DNA of 64,000 bases. Source: Bacteroidales bacterium. GTDB lineage: Bacteria; Bacteroidota; Bacteroidia; Bacteroidales; FEN-979. Shown one piece after another: positions 1,731 to 22,263 of the stretch. Location of the stretch: NCBI GenBank assembly GCA_030681475.1, contig JAUXWT010000049.1:7991-71990 (forward strand), written 5' to 3'. The notes beneath the pieces were generated by a model, which was given only the letters and a program-made list of their open reading frames with translations, was not told the DNA's origin and ran no database searches. A program made the position numbers and the translations under genes. Position 1 is the stretch's first letter. Each line of letters starts with the position of its first letter.

Positions 1731-2600
1731 ATGTCAAAAATTGCCCATATCATATATATTTCAGTGTTGACGATCATCGTCATTGTTGTGGTTATTGCGG
1801 TTACCCGCATCGGATTATCATACTACACGGTTGGAATTGAAGAGCGGTTCTTTCATCCTGACCATATAAAATTGAAACCCAGCGGGACCTGGGGCCATGG
1901 CATGGGCATCATCGGATCATTGTTTATGATAACCGGTGTTTCCATCTATATGGCAAGGAAAAGATTCAGGATATTCAGCCGGGTAGGCATCCTGAAACAC
2001 TGGCTGGAGTTTCACATTTTCCTGTGTTCGATGGGGCCGATCCTGGTGCTTTTTCACACCTCTTTTAAATTTGGCGGGTTGGTTGCCATCAGTTTCTGGA
2101 GCATGGTGGCGGTTTTCGTGAGCGGTATCATCGGGAGGTTCATCTATATCCAGATCCCGAGAACAATAGAAGGAAGGGAATTGAGTTTAAATGAAGTTAG
2201 GGAAATGAAGAGTGATATCGGTGACCATATCCGGAATCTTGTTTCCCTGAATGATGAAAGCTACAACATTATTGTTGATTCAACCAGGAAGAGGGTTGAA
2301 CGAAGTCATAAAAATTTCCTTGTTCGCTATATCAGGAAGTACAGCGATGACAGGAAAACTATCCGCAACGTAAAAACGGTCCTCAGGCAAAACAAAATTA
2401 CCAAATCGCAGCATAAACAAGTTCTGGCCCTGGTGAAGAGTGATATTTCACTGAACAGAAGGATTGAAAGACTTGTGACCATGCAAAATTTATTCAAATA
2501 CTGGCATGTCGCACATCTGCCGTTTGCACTTGTGATGCTGATCATCATGATCATTCACATTGCTGTAACCATCATTTTTGGTTACCGCTGGATATTTTGA
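1731..2600 (+). CDS. Polytopic membrane protein with His residues in TM helices (possible haem-b or ferric-reductase-like subunit)
   Basis: 289 aa with about 4 N-terminal TM segments, a basic soluble region and a C-terminal TM segment. His-containing helices are HWLEFHIFL, LFHTSF and WHVAHLPF. It overlaps the next gene by 4 nt. I do not recognise the family. Confidence 0.5.
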   Translation: MSKIAHIIYISVLTIIVIVVVIAVTRIGLSYYTVGIEERFFHPDHIKLKPSGTWGHGMGIIGSLFMITGVSIYMARKRFRIFSRVGILKHWLEFHIFLCSMGPILVLFHTSFKFGGLVAISFWSMVAVFVSGIIGRFIYIQIPRTIEGRELSLNEVREMKSDIGDHIRNLVSLNDESYNIIVDSTRKRVERSHKNFLVRYIRKYSDDRKTIRNVKTVLRQNKITKSQHKQVLALVKSDISLNRRIERLVTMQNLFKYWHVAHLPFALVMLIIMIIHIAVTIIFGYRWIF

Positions 2601-3934
2601 AGATGGAATTAGTATTCGAGAAAGTGGCTGTCTACACTGTGGCGATCCTCTTCTGCCTGGTGGTGGTCGTTATATATCTTCGAAAACAAAAACGGGATTC
2701 GAATAAGGTTGAGGAAAAAATCGTCAAGGCAAAGCTTGAGGGGTTGTATGAACCTGTATCACTTCATCCCGTAGTTGATGTAGGAAGTTGTATTAAAACC
2801 GGAGCCTGCATTGCTGCCTGTCCTGAAAAGGATATCCTCGGGATCAGAAATGGAAAAGCAACTACAATCAATGCTTCTCAATGCATCGGGCATGGCGCCT
2901 GTTTTCATGCATGCCCTACAGAGGCAATAACATTATGTATCGGCACCGAGAAGAGAGGTGTTGAATTACCGCATGTCGACCAAAACTTTGAGACTAACAT
3001 TCCCGGGATTTTCATTGCCGGGGAATTGGGTGGCATGGGCCTGATCAAAAATGCTGTGGAACAAGGCAAACAGGCTGTGGAAAATATTGTGAAGTCGATC
3101 CCTAAAAGCCATCAAGGCGCCTACGATCTGATTATTGTGGGAGCAGGGCCGGCAGGTATTTCTGCTTCGCTGACCGCAAAAAAACATCAACTTAAATTCA
3201 TCACCTTAGACCAGGATACCCTGGGTGGAACAGTTTTCACCTTTCCACGTTCAAAGATCGTGATGACATCGGCCATGGACTTGCCTCTTCACGGAAAAGT
3301 GAAACTCTTCGAAACGAGCAAATCAGAATTGCTTTCATTGTGGAATGACGTATTGACAAAAAACGACATTATAATAAAGGAAAATTCAAAGGTTGAGTCC
3401 ATTACTTCTGAAAATGATTATTTCAATGTGGTAACGCTAAACGGTGATAAATATACTGGTAAAAAGGTGTTGCTTTCCATCGGCCGGCGGGGAACCCCGC
3501 GAAAATTAGGCATTCCCGGAGAAACACTCGAGAAAGTAGCCTATCGGCTTCTGGAGCCTGAACTTATCAGCAATAATGAGATCATGATCGTGGGGGGTGG
3601 CGACTCCGCAATTGAATCTGCCCTACTGCTTGCGGACCAGAACAAAGTAACCATATCTTATAGAAATGAAGTATTCAACAGGATCAAACCTAAGAACAAC
3701 GAAAAGATCAACTTAGCCATGGCTTCAGGTAAGATCCAGGTTCTCTTTAATACCAACCCGATCAGAATTGAGAAAGAGTCGGTCACGCTTGCAAGAAATA
3801 CCGAAGGAGATGAATTGGGAATTAAAAATGACCTGATTTACATATTTGCCGGAGGTGAACTTCCAACACAATTTTTGCAGAAGGTCGGCCTGCACATCAC
3901 AAAAAAATTCGGAGAGGCGATTTTGAAACATTGA
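2597..3934 (+). CDS. Membrane-anchored Fe-S / FAD-NAD(P) oxidoreductase (thioredoxin-reductase-like fold)
   Basis: 445 aa with an N-terminal TM segment followed by RKQKR. Two ferredoxin-like motifs (CIKTGACIAACP, CIGHGACFHACP) are followed by dinucleotide-binding motifs IIVGAGPAG and IVGGGDSA. Confidence 0.8.
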   Translation: MKMELVFEKVAVYTVAILFCLVVVVIYLRKQKRDSNKVEEKIVKAKLEGLYEPVSLHPVVDVGSCIKTGACIAACPEKDILGIRNGKATTINASQCIGHGACFHACPTEAITLCIGTEKRGVELPHVDQNFETNIPGIFIAGELGGMGLIKNAVEQGKQAVENIVKSIPKSHQGAYDLIIVGAGPAGISASLTAKKHQLKFITLDQDTLGGTVFTFPRSKIVMTSAMDLPLHGKVKLFETSKSELLSLWNDVLTKNDIIIKENSKVESITSENDYFNVVTLNGDKYTGKKVLLSIGRRGTPRKLGIPGETLEKVAYRLLEPELISNNEIMIVGGGDSAIESALLLADQNKVTISYRNEVFNRIKPKNNEKINLAMASGKIQVLFNTNPIRIEKESVTLARNTEGDELGIKNDLIYIFAGGELPTQFLQKVGLHITKKFGEAILKH

Positions 3935-3944
3935 TAATTTATCG

Positions 3945-4034
3945 ATGCAAGCAATGGAGACAATGCAAGCAAGGAAAACAATGCAAGTAATGAAGACAAT
4001 GCAGGCAATGAAGGCAATGCAAGTAATGGCGCGA
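3945..4034 (+). repeat. Nonamer tandem array, 10 units (consensus ATGCAAGCA / ATGAAGACA, alternating to give an 18-bp super-repeat)
   Basis: Read directly from the sequence. Nine of the ten units start with an ATG in frame with the downstream cytochrome ORF. The array ends exactly at the ATG at 4035. Confidence 0.9.
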
Positions 4035-5633
4035 ATGAAATTAATAATTAGTTTACTGGCTTTATTGGTTGGTTGTCAGGGGTATGCTCAAATCTCACCA
4101 GGGGAATTATCCAAGGTTCATGCTCATCTGGAGGGGATATCAAATTGCACACAATGCCATATCCTGGGAAAAAAGGTGTCCAATAAAAAATGCCTGGATT
4201 GCCATACAGAGATCAAAGAACGGATTGAACAAAAGACTGGATATCATTCATCTTCCGACATCAGGGGTAAGGAGTGTGTTGCCTGTCACAGCGACCATCA
4301 CGGGTTAAATTTTCAGATCATCCGGTTCAACACAGAACAATTCGATCACAACTTAACAGGATTCGGTTTGTCAGGCGCACACAGCAAGAAGCAATGTTCC
4401 GACTGCCATAAAAAGGAATTCATTAAAGATCAGAAGATCAAAGCGAAAAAATTCACTTACCTTGGCTTGGGTTCAGGTTGCCTGACATGCCATGCGGATT
4501 ATCACCAGCAAACAATGTCGGCAAAATGCACTGAATGTCATGAATTTACAGCCTTCAAACCTGCCTCAAAATTCAACCATGACAAAACTGAATTTAAATT
4601 AATCGGGAAACATATCCAGGTCGCATGCATTGGCTGTCATAAGACCGGAACTAAAAACGGACAAAGCTTCCAGGAATTCAAGGACATCAAATTCGATAAC
4701 TGCACAAGCTGCCATCAGGATGTACACAACAACAAGTTTGGACAGAATTGCACACAATGTCATACAGAACAGTCATTCGGGTACATCAAAGGCGTCCGGA
4801 ATTTCGACCACGATAAAACTGATTTCAGGCTGGAGGGAAAACATCAAACAGTCGGATGCAATGATTGTCATAAAACTAAATTAACCAATGCGCTGAAATT
4901 CGGTCGGTGCACCGACTGTCATGCCGATTATCATAAGAACCAATTTGCTGCGCAGGGAGTATCACCTGATTGTTCGCAATGTCATACCGTAAATGGGTTC
5001 TCTGAAAGTACTTATACCATGGAACGGCACAACCAAGGCGTCTTTCCGTTAAGGGGAGCTCATCTGGCAACGCCATGTTTTGCCTGTCATAATAAAAATG
5101 CCGGTCAGACGCAGAAAAACTGGCAGTTCACGAAGATCGGGATGCGTTGCATCGACTGTCACCAGAATATTCACCAACAATTTATCAGCGAGAGATATTA
5201 TCCCCAATCAAGTTGCGAGAGTTGTCATGACGAGACCCGTTGGAATTCAATCAACTTTGATCACAACAAAACGAATTTTGAACTTACCGGTACACATGCC
5301 CATAAAACCTGCAGGGATTGTCATTTCAACAAAGAAAAGGAAGGAACCACACAGCAGAAATTTATGGGTACGCCAGCCACCTGCTCAGGATGCCATATCG
5401 ACATTCATTTACAACAGTTTGATAACAATGGGGTTAACGATTGTTCAAGATGTCATGACCCTGTTTCATTTAAACCTGTGACGAAATTTGATCACAGTAA
5501 AACCTTATTCCCGTTGGATGGAAAACACAAAGATCTTGCCTGTAACAAATGTCACAAGGTAATGGAGAATAATGGAATTTATTATGTACTGTACAAAATA
5601 AAGGAGTTCAAATGCGAAAATTGTCATCATTGA
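4035..5633 (+). CDS. Multihaem c-type cytochrome, 20 CXXCH, lipoprotein
   Basis: I counted 20 CXXCH motifs. The signal peptide MKLIISLLALLVGC carries a lipobox. Repeated F-[DN]-H-x-K-T-x-F-x-L-x-G-x-H...CxxCH modules resemble c3/c7-type polymers. The ORF-track start at 3945 lies inside the repeat array, so 4035 is preferred. Confidence 0.9.
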   Translation: MKLIISLLALLVGCQGYAQISPGELSKVHAHLEGISNCTQCHILGKKVSNKKCLDCHTEIKERIEQKTGYHSSSDIRGKECVACHSDHHGLNFQIIRFNTEQFDHNLTGFGLSGAHSKKQCSDCHKKEFIKDQKIKAKKFTYLGLGSGCLTCHADYHQQTMSAKCTECHEFTAFKPASKFNHDKTEFKLIGKHIQVACIGCHKTGTKNGQSFQEFKDIKFDNCTSCHQDVHNNKFGQNCTQCHTEQSFGYIKGVRNFDHDKTDFRLEGKHQTVGCNDCHKTKLTNALKFGRCTDCHADYHKNQFAAQGVSPDCSQCHTVNGFSESTYTMERHNQGVFPLRGAHLATPCFACHNKNAGQTQKNWQFTKIGMRCIDCHQNIHQQFISERYYPQSSCESCHDETRWNSINFDHNKTNFELTGTHAHKTCRDCHFNKEKEGTTQQKFMGTPATCSGCHIDIHLQQFDNNGVNDCSRCHDPVSFKPVTKFDHSKTLFPLDGKHKDLACNKCHKVMENNGIYYVLYKIKEFKCENCHH

Positions 5634-7354
5634 TTTTGTCGTCTGTATTGTCTGTAAGTCTGATTGCACAGCCATCGCCACACGGAGCGGATTTTGCTGT
5701 TGCATGTTCGGAATGCCACAGTACCTCGGGTTGGACCATAAACATGAAAACCCTTTCGTTTAATCATGGCTCCACTCAGTTTCCGCTGATCGGGCAACAC
5801 CGGTCGGTGAACTGCAGGTTGTGCCATACTTCCCTTGAATTTGTTAAAACAGGGGCTGAATGCATTGATTGTCATACAGATATGCACAATCAGACTTTGG
5901 GGCATGACTGCGTAAGGTGCCATACTCCAAAGTCATGGGTTGTAAATAATATTACGGAGATCCATCAACGGAGTCGGTTCCCCCTTGTGGGAGCCCATGT
6001 GACTGCAGATTGCTTCGACTGTCATACAAATGCCTCGGCATCGAAGCTAAGTTTTTATCCGCTGGGGGTAGAATGTTTTGATTGCCATTTAAAAGATTAT
6101 GCAGGCACCACCAGACCGGATCACACGGCCGGAGCTTATTCGAAAAACTGTCTCGAATGTCATAATATGACCTCTGTTTCATGGTCAGGAGCTGGAATAA
6201 ATCACAATTTCTTCCCACTCACCCTGGGTCATAAAATCAATAATTGCCAGGAGTGCCATAAAACAGGCAATTTTACCGGTACATCCACTGTTTGTGTCTC
6301 CTGTCATCAGTCAAACTACAATTCAACTTCTAACCCAAACCACAACTCCATCGGTTTTTCGACAAACTGCACCGACTGCCACACGACAAACCCTGGCTGG
6401 AAACCTGCCGAATACCGGGAACATGATGCCAAATCATTTCCAATTTATTCCGGAAAACATAATGGCACATGGAGCATATGCAGCGAATGCCACACTAATC
6501 CTGCAAGCTATACACAATTCACCTGTATCGATTGCCATGACCACAACCAACCTGACATGGACAAAGAGCACGCTGAGGTTCAAGGCTACGCCTATAACAG
6601 TCCAGCGTGCTTTGCATGTCACCCGACCGGCTCAAAAGAAGGTGCCTTTAACCACATCAGTTATCCGCTTACAGGCGCACATGCGAATATCGCTGCCAAT
6701 TGCTTTACCTGCCATCAGGGAAACTACATCAACACTCCGAATACCTGCGAGGGGTGTCACTTACCGGCTTATAACTCATCAACAAATCCAAATCATGCCT
6801 CCCTAAGCATTCCGGCAACCTGCACTTCCTGTCATACCACCAATCCAAACTGGAAACCTGCCACTTTCGATATACACAACACTTTTTATGTTCTGGCCGG
6901 AGCTCATGTTGCCATAGCGAACAATTGTACCGACTGCCACCAGGGGAATTATAATTCCACGCCAAGTACCTGCGTTGGTTGTCACCAGCCGGATTATAAT
7001 CAAACAACCAATCCATCGCATGTTGCAGCACAGTTTCCGACCAGTTGTATCGATTGCCATACACAATCAGCTTGGATTCCTGCCAATTGGAATCATGACG
7101 GACAGTACTTCCCAATCTACTCGGGAAAACATAAAAATGAATGGAATACCTGTGCCGATTGCCATACTAATGGGGGGAATTATTCAGTGTTTACCTGTAT
7201 AACCGCTTGCCATCCTCAATCACAAACAGACAATGACCATCAGGGGGTAAGCGGATATTTTTATAACAGCGCTGCCTGCTATAACTGCCATCCCCAGGGG
7301 ACATCGGCAGGAAAAATGCTGGACAAGTTCAACAAGATCAATCGAAAAGAATAA
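5612..7354 (+). CDS. Multihaem c-type cytochrome, 21 CXXCH plus one CX3CH (CITACH)
   Basis: The signal peptide is MRKLSSLILSSVLSVSLIAQ. Haem motifs were counted by hand. There is an internal duplication of about 115 aa. The gene overlaps the upstream cytochrome by 22 nt. Confidence 0.9.
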   Translation: MRKLSSLILSSVLSVSLIAQPSPHGADFAVACSECHSTSGWTINMKTLSFNHGSTQFPLIGQHRSVNCRLCHTSLEFVKTGAECIDCHTDMHNQTLGHDCVRCHTPKSWVVNNITEIHQRSRFPLVGAHVTADCFDCHTNASASKLSFYPLGVECFDCHLKDYAGTTRPDHTAGAYSKNCLECHNMTSVSWSGAGINHNFFPLTLGHKINNCQECHKTGNFTGTSTVCVSCHQSNYNSTSNPNHNSIGFSTNCTDCHTTNPGWKPAEYREHDAKSFPIYSGKHNGTWSICSECHTNPASYTQFTCIDCHDHNQPDMDKEHAEVQGYAYNSPACFACHPTGSKEGAFNHISYPLTGAHANIAANCFTCHQGNYINTPNTCEGCHLPAYNSSTNPNHASLSIPATCTSCHTTNPNWKPATFDIHNTFYVLAGAHVAIANNCTDCHQGNYNSTPSTCVGCHQPDYNQTTNPSHVAAQFPTSCIDCHTQSAWIPANWNHDGQYFPIYSGKHKNEWNTCADCHTNGGNYSVFTCITACHPQSQTDNDHQGVSGYFYNSAACYNCHPQGTSAGKMLDKFNKINRKE

Positions 7355-7364
7355 AACTATTTCC

Positions 7365-9002
7365 ATGAAACAATTACTTCCGGCGATACTGTTATTTTTT
7401 TCCTTGTCCTCCTTGACAGGTCAAACCCTTTATGAAACCAAAGAAGGCAAGGTTTCATATGTAACCACACAGACCGTTTACGTTAAATTCCAATCCACTG
7501 AAAATATCGCCCCGGGGGATACGCTGTTTTCGAACCAGGATGGAACCCTGATTCCGTTACTTACAGTAAGGGAAAAATCATCTATTTCCTGTGTTTGCTT
7601 GGTGATTTCTGAAAAAAAAATATCTGTCGGAGATCAGGTTTTTTCAAAACAAAAACCAGTTCAGATACCCAAAACCGGGGATAAAAAAACAGTTCCGGAG
7701 TTACCGCCGCTAACCTCTGACCGCGATTCTGTAATTGTCAGGCAGGAGCAACCATCCAAACGGTTGCAGGTGGTTACAGGAAATATTTCTGTTGCTTCTT
7801 ATCTGAATTTTTCAAGTGTAAGCAAGAGTACGCAACGGATGAAATATAATTTCGCGATGGCAGTGGAGAATATAGGTAACTCAAGGTTATCTGCTGAAAC
7901 ATACATATCCTTCGCTCATAAATTGGGTGAATGGAATACGGTTCAACATGACATCTTCAATGGATTAAAAATCTACAGTCTATCGCTTAACTATATGTTC
8001 AATAAACACAATAAAATTTTGTTAGGCAGAAAAATCAACCCCCGGATCTCCAATGTCGGAGCAATAGATGGACTCCAGTATGAAACTAAAGCGGGTGCAT
8101 TTTCCGTTGGGTTGCTGGTGGGCTCCAGACCCGATTACAGGAACTACAGTTTCAACGCAAACCTGCTTCAGTTTGGCGGGTATGTCGGGCACGACCATAC
8201 CGGAAAAAATGGAAATATGCAAACAACGCTGGCTTTTTTTGAACAAAAGAATAACGGCATCACCGACCGCAGGTTTGCCTATCTGCAGCACACCAATCCA
8301 CTCGTTCGTAATTTGTACTTTTTCGGTTCACTCGAGGTGGATCTTTATAAAAAAACCATGAACCACCCGGATACGGCCGTTAGTAAAGACACAACATACA
8401 ATAAGGACTACTCACCTGCCCTATCCAACCTGTATTTATCGCTGAGATACAGACCGGTCAGGCAATTGTCACTTTCTTTGTCGTACAGCGCCAGGCAAAA
8501 TGTAATTTACTATGAAACATATAAATCTCTGGTTGAAAGGCTGCTTGAGGAGGCAACCGTGCAGGGGTTTACCTTTCAAATCAATTATCAGCCTGTTAAA
8601 TTATTATCCATTGGCATAAATGCCGGATACCGGAATAGCAAAACGGACCCAAGGCCATCGAAAAATATTTACGGGTATGTCTCATTCAGCAGGATTCCGG
8701 GCATCAATGTGACAAGTACTGTTTCAGCTACTATTCTGGAAACCGGTTATCTGTCGGGAAACATATACAGCCTGGGTGTCTCACGTGATGTGGTGGAAGG
8801 AAAGTTGACGGCAGGCATGAACTACCGGTATGTCAGCTACCGGTTTCAGGGCGGTGAAACCCAACTGGTTCAAAACATGGGTGAGATAAATTTCACCTGG
8901 CGGATATTAAGAAAACTTTCCTGCGGTTTGTATTATGAAGGCACGTTTGACAAATCATCAACATTCAATCGCATTTACGTTAACCTAACCCAACGATTTT
9001 AA
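7365..9002 (+). CDS. Putative outer-membrane beta-barrel protein
   Basis: 545 aa with signal peptide MKQLLPAILLFFSLSSLTGQ. It shows alternating beta-strand-like sequence rich in Y/G/N/S and a C-terminal ...YVNLTQRF aromatic terminus. It starts 10 nt after the cytochrome gene. Confidence 0.6.
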   Translation: MKQLLPAILLFFSLSSLTGQTLYETKEGKVSYVTTQTVYVKFQSTENIAPGDTLFSNQDGTLIPLLTVREKSSISCVCLVISEKKISVGDQVFSKQKPVQIPKTGDKKTVPELPPLTSDRDSVIVRQEQPSKRLQVVTGNISVASYLNFSSVSKSTQRMKYNFAMAVENIGNSRLSAETYISFAHKLGEWNTVQHDIFNGLKIYSLSLNYMFNKHNKILLGRKINPRISNVGAIDGLQYETKAGAFSVGLLVGSRPDYRNYSFNANLLQFGGYVGHDHTGKNGNMQTTLAFFEQKNNGITDRRFAYLQHTNPLVRNLYFFGSLEVDLYKKTMNHPDTAVSKDTTYNKDYSPALSNLYLSLRYRPVRQLSLSLSYSARQNVIYYETYKSLVERLLEEATVQGFTFQINYQPVKLLSIGINAGYRNSKTDPRPSKNIYGYVSFSRIPGINVTSTVSATILETGYLSGNIYSLGVSRDVVEGKLTAGMNYRYVSYRFQGGETQLVQNMGEINFTWRILRKLSCGLYYEGTFDKSSTFNRIYVNLTQRF

Positions 9003-9042
9003 CTTTCCTTGATTTCACGCCATCCCCTACCTGATTAATAAT

Positions 9043-9050
9043 TATCTTTG
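9043..9050 (+). promoter_or_regulatory. -7 box TATCTTTG
   Basis: Exact TAnnTTTG match, 42 nt upstream of the ATG at 9092. Confidence 0.45.
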
Positions 9051-16067: not shown

Positions 16068-16076
16068 ATTAAAATA

Positions 16077-18981
<2,905 letters not shown>

Positions 18982-19766: not shown

Positions 19767-19824
19767 AGGATTTGAATTTAATTGATTAGACGTTTTTTTT
19801 GGATTTGGTTACAAATGGTAAGGT

Positions 19825-19860
19825 GGACAAGGGGACAAGGGGACAAGGGGACAAGGGGAC
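19825..19860 (+). repeat. Perfect octamer array (GGACAAGG) x4.5
   Basis: Read directly from the sequence. It contains four GGGG runs separated by ACAA (19831-19858). Confidence 0.95.
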
Positions 19861-19897
19861 TTTTGCAATTTGATTTTGCATTTTGGTTTTTGCATTT
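19861..19897 (+). repeat. 13-bp T-rich repeat x3 (TTTTGCAATTTGA TTTTGCATTTTGG TTTTTGCATTTC)
   Basis: Read directly from the sequence. It abuts the GGACAAGG array and ends at the stop codon of the 19898-20950 gene on the minus strand. Confidence 0.75.
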
Positions 19898-22155: not shown

Positions 22156-22187
22156 GGACAGGGGGACAAGGGGACGGGGGGACGGGT
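22156..22187 (+). repeat. Octamer array x4 (GGACAGGG GGACAAGG GGACGGGG GGACGGGT)
   Basis: Read directly from the sequence. It is related to the 19825 array and carries G-runs at 22161-22186. Confidence 0.9.
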
Positions 22188-22193
22188 GAAATT

Positions 22194-22228
22194 GTTTGCA
22201 TTGTCTGCATTGTTTTCATTATTTCATT
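22194..22228 (+). repeat. Nonamer array x3.5 (GTTTGCATT GTCTGCATT GTTTTCATT ATTTCATT)
   Basis: Read directly from the sequence. The reverse complement AATGCARAC matches the unit of the 3945-4034 array. Confidence 0.85.
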
Positions 22229-22263
22229 TTTTGTAACTATCTACAAACGATTAACTTTGCACC

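Follow-up and report, generated by a model that had tools for sequence, protein, structure and literature searches.

Within the 64,000-nucleotide stretch of Bacteroidales DNA analyzed here (the window), an oxidoreductase gene and a multihaem cytochrome c gene belong to one operon, and the 100 nt that separate them are filled by a tandem repeat that sets one ATG after another ahead of the cytochrome presequence. Is this array a device for initiating translation or shaping an exported protein, or a repeat that is merely tolerated there? Read directly, positions 3945 to 4034 of the + strand are ten head-to-tail 9-bp units with the consensus ATG[C/A]A[A/G][A/G]CA. Units 1 to 5 are ATGCAAGCA ATGGAGACA ATGCAAGCA AGGAAAACA ATGCAAGTA and units 6 to 10 are ATGAAGACA ATGCAGGCA ATGAAGGCA ATGCAAGTA ATGGCGCGA, after which ATGAAATTA... 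follows in register. ATG opens nine of the ten units (unit 4 opens with AGG). These nine ATGs share one frame in which the array has no stop codon, and the frame stays open from 3945 to 5633 (562 aa). The sequence reads exactly as an earlier note on this DNA had described it with respect to unit number and in-frame ATGs, and its point about frame safety also holds, since with a unit that is a multiple of three the gain or loss of units leaves the frame intact.

The identification of the array draws on the sequence, TRF, lag identities, shuffles and the distribution of the unit family. TRF reported a period of 18 with 4.7 copies (83% match, score 119) and a period of 9 with 9.3 copies. Units two or four apart are identical at 7.1 to 7.3 of 9 positions, compared with 5.4 to 5.9 for units one or three apart; lag 2 alone gives 7.1 of 9 and lag 1 gives 5.9 of 9. 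These results confirm the 18-bp alternation proposed earlier and suggest that the array grew by double units. The longest run of ATGs at 9-nt spacing in the window contains 7, while the maximum among 200 shuffles of the window was 4.

The array lies inside an operon. Upstream is a gene for a 4Fe-4S and FAD/NAD(P) oxidoreductase (2597 to 3934, + strand; Pyr_redox_3, 1.5e-39; Fer4_10), and downstream is the multihaem cytochrome c gene (4017 to 5633, + strand; Cytochrome_C7, 1.4e-24; Cytochrom_c3_2), placed by orthologue alignment and start-context scores. A second multihaem cytochrome c gene of the operon (5612 to 7354, + strand; ORF list and domain search) overlaps the end of the first, at 5633, by 22 nt. 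The oxidoreductase-cytochrome pair is kept in Bacteroidales, Ignavibacteria and others, and the overlap of stop and start in one congener (G015) argues that the pair is cotranscribed. Two other genes of the cluster, at 1731 to 2600 (289 aa, a polytopic membrane protein) and 7365 to 9002 (545 aa), had no Pfam match. The sole + strand match to TAnnTTTG near the cluster is a putative Bacteroidetes-type -7 box, TAATTTTG at 1669 to 1676, which was identified by consensus match only and lies ahead of the first gene (1731). There was no + strand match within 2073 to 9043, and the array is therefore probably inside a polycistronic transcript, as an intercistronic spacer rather than a promoter-proximal leader. 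A scan for sigma-70 promoters and terminators gave results at shuffle level. Regulation by an upstream ORF or leader peptide was ruled out because the ATG frame contains no stop from 3945 to 5633.

Several ATGs could start the cytochrome gene: 4017 (by orthologue length), 4026, 4035 or any of the array ATGs as far upstream as 3945. The public gene caller chose the 562-aa form, a call that is probably overextended or at least uncertain. In an alignment with 14 congeners, their initiator Met lines up with residue 25 of the extended ORF. This residue is encoded by the ATG at 4017, which precedes 4035 by two units. The presequence is 24 aa in 11 of the 14 orthologues and would be 18 aa here if translation started at 4035. 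By this alignment, the last two array units occupy what is coding sequence in relatives, and the ancestral start falls inside the array. The array had been described as running from 10 nt past the upstream stop exactly to the ATG at 4035. It does begin 10 nt past that stop (TGA at 3932 to 3934, followed by TAA), but with the orthologue Met at 4017 it may not end at the true start.

The presequence itself ends in ...LLVGCQGYA, and the QISPGEL that follows is conserved among orthologues. Its description as a normal lipoprotein signal peptide was correct insofar as 4035 to 4091 encodes an LVGC lipobox-like motif, but the Cys is not conserved in most orthologues, whose presequences mostly end in an Ala/Ser/Gly-Gln site resembling that of signal peptidase I. 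Lipidation is thus putative.

Bacteroidia ribosomes do not use Shine-Dalgarno pairing for start choice, and additional AUGs near starts are normally avoided or underrepresented in Bacteroidetes (Baez et al. 2019, PMC6847099). A start-context matrix was built from 387 confident starts of this genome, in which the upstream context is A-rich and G-poor and the AUG/GAU ratio upstream of starts is 0.51. The ATG at 4035 scored -1.45 (8th percentile of true starts) and that at 4017 scored -4.4, while the first two array ATGs, at 3945 and 3954, scored +2.3 and +3.2, above 4035. Nothing in the sequence favors 4035 over the other array ATGs, and initiation at several array AUGs, including reinitiation 10 nt past the upstream stop, is plausible. 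Taken together, the 24-residue orthologue presequence aligned to 4017 and the contexts of the upstream ATGs suggest that the array is, partly or wholly, probably translated into a longer, cleavable n-region of the signal peptide. Of the alternative starts raised in the earlier note, upstream initiation is accordingly credible as a possibility, given the scores at 3945 and 3954 and the likely ancestral start within the array, but a dedicated ladder of starts is unsupported.

These scores nevertheless fit a multistart "landing pad," in which successive in-frame AUGs would enhance or adjust initiation at the second cistron, in a lineage whose ribosomes disregard Shine-Dalgarno sequences, and slippage would alter output while keeping the frame. 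Upstream AUGs match or beat 4035 in the genome's own start matrix, and the first of them, 10 nt past the upstream stop, is well placed for reinitiation, in a phylum where AUG is otherwise avoided near starts (PMC6847099). The base composition of the array argues the other way: its G content is 28%, compared with 9 to 14% in real start regions of the genome. An optimized A-rich leader was ruled out by this G content together with the 8th-percentile score of ATG 4035. Folded alone, the array RNA showed no special structure relative to shuffles (z = 0.18). With its flanks, the value was not significant (z = -1.68), and there was weak pairing of the 3' half of the array with signal-peptide codons. 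An Rfam search of the window returned a single tRNA and no match at the array. The suggestion that the array is simply an unstructured leader fits the folding result, but an array richer in G than the genome's start regions does not look like an optimized leader.

The spacer between oxidoreductase and cytochrome was read in 21 orthologous loci. No clear array is present in 17 of these spacers, whose lengths run from an overlap of the two genes up to about 90 nt, and one of the 17 (G006) has only a degenerate octamer-like remnant. In G008, five or six nonamer-family units immediately follow the stop, but about 190 nt separate them from the start. Other unit families are present in three spacers: a heptamer in G011 and TGCCTAYT-type octamers in L001 and G020. 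In all, the cytochrome array is missing or is replaced by other placements or families in 20 of the 21 spacers, which argues against a dedicated device, including the landing pad just described. The absence of the array from orthologues, together with the different families found there, shows that the array is neither conserved nor tied to the cytochrome start; repeats turn over rapidly in this spacer. The arrays of other families in orthologous spacers, TGCCTAYT octamers and a CGTCC-type heptamer, are those at L001 (positions 1 to 60), L044 and L033.

The same alignments address the proposal that (MQA/MKT)n serves as an n-region of variable length, one that would influence how the cytochrome is targeted or exported, in the manner of extended signal peptides. 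The array-encoded peptide, MQAMETMQARKTMQVMKTMQAMKAMQVMAR, is Met-rich with a net charge of +4 and stands directly before the hydrophobic core, and at least two units occupy presequence positions in the orthologue alignment. Two other in-register arrays, described below, likewise precede a signal peptide or membrane anchor. However, an (Mxx)n N-terminal extension was found in none of the 14 aligned orthologues, nor in the more distant loci, and the presequence is 24 aa in 11 of 14. The unit also occurs as noncoding DNA or in another frame, for example as (NAN)n in surface proteins, which points to a repeat at the DNA level rather than a selected peptide. We regard a role of the extension in export, as suggested earlier, as very unlikely. 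A conserved extended signal peptide was ruled out by the absence of the extension in 14 of 14 aligned orthologues.

An assembly artifact might also produce such an array. Short repeats do break assemblies, as is suggested by the L001 contig, which starts inside its own array. The 90-bp array, however, lies inside a long contig, and dozens of like arrays are present in many independent genomes. An exact look-up of the two cytochrome proteins retrieved a single Logan contig (SRR13727517), which is identical over 7.7 kb with zero differences. An artifact is thus hardly credible. Two exact-flank scans of metagenome contigs for other strains gave no match.

To place the array among its kin, the nonamer family was surveyed in the genome (G000; 4.24 Mb in 111 contigs), where ORF calls are crude (longest ORF, greedy) and distances to starts are approximate. 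The family comprises 41 arrays with 234 units on both strands. Its logo reads A T G [C.67/A.20] A [A.58/G.38] [A.50/G.37] [C.76/T.17] A, with an invariant ATG. An in-frame stop, mostly ATG TAA, interrupts 23 of the 234 units (about 10%). By these ORF calls, 32 of the 41 arrays are intergenic, 22 pointing toward the next gene and 10 away. Of the 18 arrays in codirectional spacers, 13 have their first base in the interval from -15 to +10 nt relative to the upstream stop, while the gap to the following start can be anything from 0 to 649 nt. Only 3 of the 41 arrays read open into a long ORF. A second array lies in the window at 22191 to 22233 on the - strand (sequence and TRF), with GCAAACAAT-type units. 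It is the reverse-complement copy that had been placed at 22194 to 22228, and it abuts an array of GGACAGGG octamers. The two lie in a divergent promoter region, and no gene starts beside the nonamer array. The 30 nt on either side of 32 nonamer arrays had no conserved sequence or information content, and these featureless flanks ruled out a mobile element with defined ends.

A unit family that recurs at 41 sites in both orientations, anchored at stops rather than starts and often carrying in-frame stops, argues against the view of the array as a ladder or regulatory device. It also weighs against the landing pad reading, since most arrays of the family are far from starts, on the opposite strand or interrupted by stops. 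We consider that reading unlikely, although it draws some strength from the arrays that do reach a start.

In G000, 3 of 41 nonamer arrays reach a gene start, all in register: the array of the 4017 gene, C54:33073 and C22:7251. At C54:33073-33117, outside the window, (ATGAAGACA)5 forms the first 15 codons, (MKT)5, of the gene for a CusB-like efflux adaptor, and the membrane anchor follows. This adaptor has a C-terminal metal-binding domain, and the initial ATG of its gene shares bases with the stop of the preceding gene (ATGA). The C22:7251 array has its final three units in the reading frame of MalQ. In G008, six units on C10 (L109, about 6995 to 7048), (MQA)3(MKT)3, run in register into the lipoprotein presequence MKTFYVFAVCLLLLAGC. 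The arrangement is the same as that at the cytochrome, but the gene is unrelated. Nonamer arrays at least 20 nt from a start are in any frame. Within ORFs, nonamer DNA encodes an (MQx)n linker once and (NAN)n at seven places in large repeat-domain proteins, indicating that the repeat also invades coding sequence. Outside the window, nonamer DNA was observed within repeated domains at C69:9962-9997, C77:4525-5100, C87:828-1133, C90:550-858 and C106:828-863. The proteins in question are secreted and 1000 to 1766 aa long, and the nonamer is read there in another frame as ...YQWKVNANNANNANNAVFTY....

All four start-touching arrays are thus in register and open, which fits a landing pad. These cases are few and were noted post hoc. 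They could reflect selection rather than tolerance. They fit a tolerance filter, by which the repeat settles where its translation is tolerated, and they also fit a seeding of arrays at ATG-AAA-type starts; such small numbers demonstrate no function.

The nonamer is one of several repeat families in this genome. Among 933 tandem-repeat clusters, 234 have period 7, 247 have period 8 and 63 have period 9, and TRF found further 8- and 9-nt arrays within the window. Array blocks occupy 18 to 20% of codirectional, convergent and divergent spacers alike (crude ORF calls), and genome-wide the nearest gene boundary tends to be a stop codon and not a start. Of 651 arrays with period 7 to 9 or multiples, only 112 are inside ORFs, in a genome that is about 90% coding by the same crude calls. 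Two unit families abut in 44 of 608 blocks. Such composite blocks include 19820 to 19897 and 22156 to 22233 in the window and C63:51811, C75:6996 and C83:4052 elsewhere in G000, for example AAGGGGAC and then TTTTGCA. In composite blocks, the nonamer is repeatedly succeeded by a GTCACCCT/GTCCGCCT-type octamer.

An octamer family unrelated to the nonamer, GAAATRGY, also touches starts. Genome-wide, it comprises 85 arrays, and in 21 of them an ORF of at least 100 aa has its ATG in the last two units or within 10 nt. In the GAAATRGY arrays at 817 to 864 and 16072 to 16124, the start ATG of the next gene is inside the last unit; by Pfam these genes are a shikimate dehydrogenase (861) and ligA (ATG at 16121).

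Across the genus, the nonamer family was present in 23 of 40 genomes, as judged by a three-unit pattern with at most one mismatch, for which the reversed control gave none. G000 had 61 pattern matches and congeners as many as 544, with 0 for the reversed control. With no mismatch allowed, the pattern had no match in any of 200 genomes from 167 other genera of the order. GAAATRGY arrays were present in 27 of the 40 congeners, and 11 of the 40 had neither family. The abundances of the two families correlate across the 40 congeners (Spearman 0.62, a figure inflated by kinship), and individual genomes differ widely: nonamer and GAAATRGY matches number 186 and 0 in G018 and 544 and 158 in G051. Within this genus, the load of repeats is a trait of the species. 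The distribution suggests that the lineage as a whole tends to form and retain arrays, with amplification of particular families superimposed.

It might be argued that the nonamers are binding sites, recognized by an RNA- or DNA-binding factor, a role proposed for the TAACTGA repeats of Beggiatoaceae, and forming a posttranscriptional or nucleoid-level regulon. Their CAATG..A core is highly conserved across the 234 units while positions 4, 6, 7 and 8 vary, there is a moderate sense bias (22 forward, 10 reverse), different unit families recurrently pair, and the family is restricted to one genus, with hundreds of copies in some genomes. On the other hand, the arrays occur in either orientation, convergent spacers contain them as well as divergent ones, their flanking genes share no function, 17 of 40 congeners lack the nonamer family entirely and no candidate factor emerged. 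We give this explanation only a small chance.

The explanation that we favor, and consider likely, is that the array is a tolerated, slippage-born microsatellite, 1 of 41 of a genus-specific 9-nt family, and not a purpose-built ladder. From the observed anatomy, family distribution, orthologue turnover and start-context scores, we infer that slippage generated the array in the spacer of the cytochrome operon, where it would have grown by 18-bp double units and entered the cytochrome gene at its 5' end, matching the register of the start codon. Its ATG would be merely the invariant core of the repeat. A ribosome blind to Shine-Dalgarno sequences, perhaps reinitiating after the stop 10 nt upstream, could then start at any array AUG, and each such start would yield the same preprotein with a longer n-region that is removed with the signal peptide. 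The array may persist because it is harmless, being in frame and free of stops, with the added n-region cleaved. Sec signal peptides in general are the basis for expecting a longer n-region to do no harm.

Three observations stand as counterpoints to this account. One is the register of the four start-touching arrays, discussed above; another is that AUGs are underrepresented near Bacteroidetes starts, so that nine AUGs in good context should matter for translation; the third is that the account does not explain how identical unit families come to be at hundreds of loci whose flanks are not conserved. It is conceivable, but quite improbable, that start-reaching arrays are kept only when in register and stop free, as multi-AUG ladders in which slippage tunes the output of exported proteins and never inactivates the gene. 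If so, initiation would be spread over several AUGs, giving presequences of varied length that are all cleaved.

The tolerated-microsatellite reading has consequences beyond this locus. The 562-aa gene call probably has a repeat-derived N-terminus, and in this genus a "longest ORF" rule cannot assign starts beside ATG-bearing repeats. The locus also provides a natural setting, free of complications, in which to study the selection of one AUG from many in equivalent positions by Bacteroidia ribosomes; every choice of AUG would yield a viable, cleavable precursor. The spread of a few 7- to 9-nt families to a fifth of spacers in some species, when searches of others did not find them, is a question for the genome scale rather than for a single locus.

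How does the array compare with known systems? Slipped-strand repeats in leader-peptide or 5' regions underlie phase variation in Neisseria opa (CTCTT) and in Haemophilus hmw1A and hmw2A (7-bp repeats in the 5' UTR). As in those systems, a tandem repeat here separates the signal peptide of an exported protein from the signals upstream, and the unit number could slip. Unlike them, the unit is a multiple of three and can produce no ON/OFF frameshift, and the gene encodes a respiratory cytochrome within an operon, not a surface antigen. A phase-variation switch was ruled out by the 9-nt, in-frame, stop-free unit and by the lack of a + strand -7 box within 2073 to 9043. Start selection in Bacteroidia, which is independent of Shine-Dalgarno sequences (PMC6847099), is reflected in this genome by the A-rich, G-poor start context and by fewer upstream AUGs than GAUs. 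The locus breaks the rule of AUG avoidance nine times, with every AUG in frame.

TAACTGA intergenic direct repeats have been described in marine Beggiatoaceae, some Cyanobacteria and five Bacteroidetes and were proposed to act on translation (MacGregor 2015, PMC4679880). They share with the nonamers short intergenic tandem units, often oriented toward and near starts, and distribution in lineage-specific patches. However, most TAACTGA sets of BOGUAY end within a few nucleotides of a start, whereas the nonamers are anchored at the upstream stop, lie at variable distances from the next start and have a third of their copies reversed. The unit also differs and contains ATG. With 22 forward and 10 reverse arrays, 3 of 41 touching a start and arrays beginning at the upstream stop, the nonamer family does not have the start proximity of the TAACTGA repeats.

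The array is closest to two classes of short tandem repeats. One is the short tandemly repeated repeats (STRR) of cyanobacteria. The other, the long simple sequence repeats (LSSR) with 5- to 11-nt units of Mrazek, Guo and Shah (2007), is known here from the summary in PMC4679880, which discusses TAACTGA repeats together with LSSR and STRR. The likeness to both classes extends to head-to-tail units of 7 to 9 nt, a small vocabulary of families at hundreds of mostly intergenic loci, a sporadic phylogenetic spread, and the finding that the units in coding sequence are those whose length is a multiple of three. Both have been attributed to slippage, with function not established. What differs here is the host, an uncultured Bacteroidales genus, the nonamer with its invariant ATG, and the fusion of one array in register to a gene start. 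The repeats of this genome have a tandem unit of 5 to 11 nt, recur at many loci far above chance and are mainly noncoding, and the array ahead of the cytochrome is an ordinary member of this recognized repeat class.
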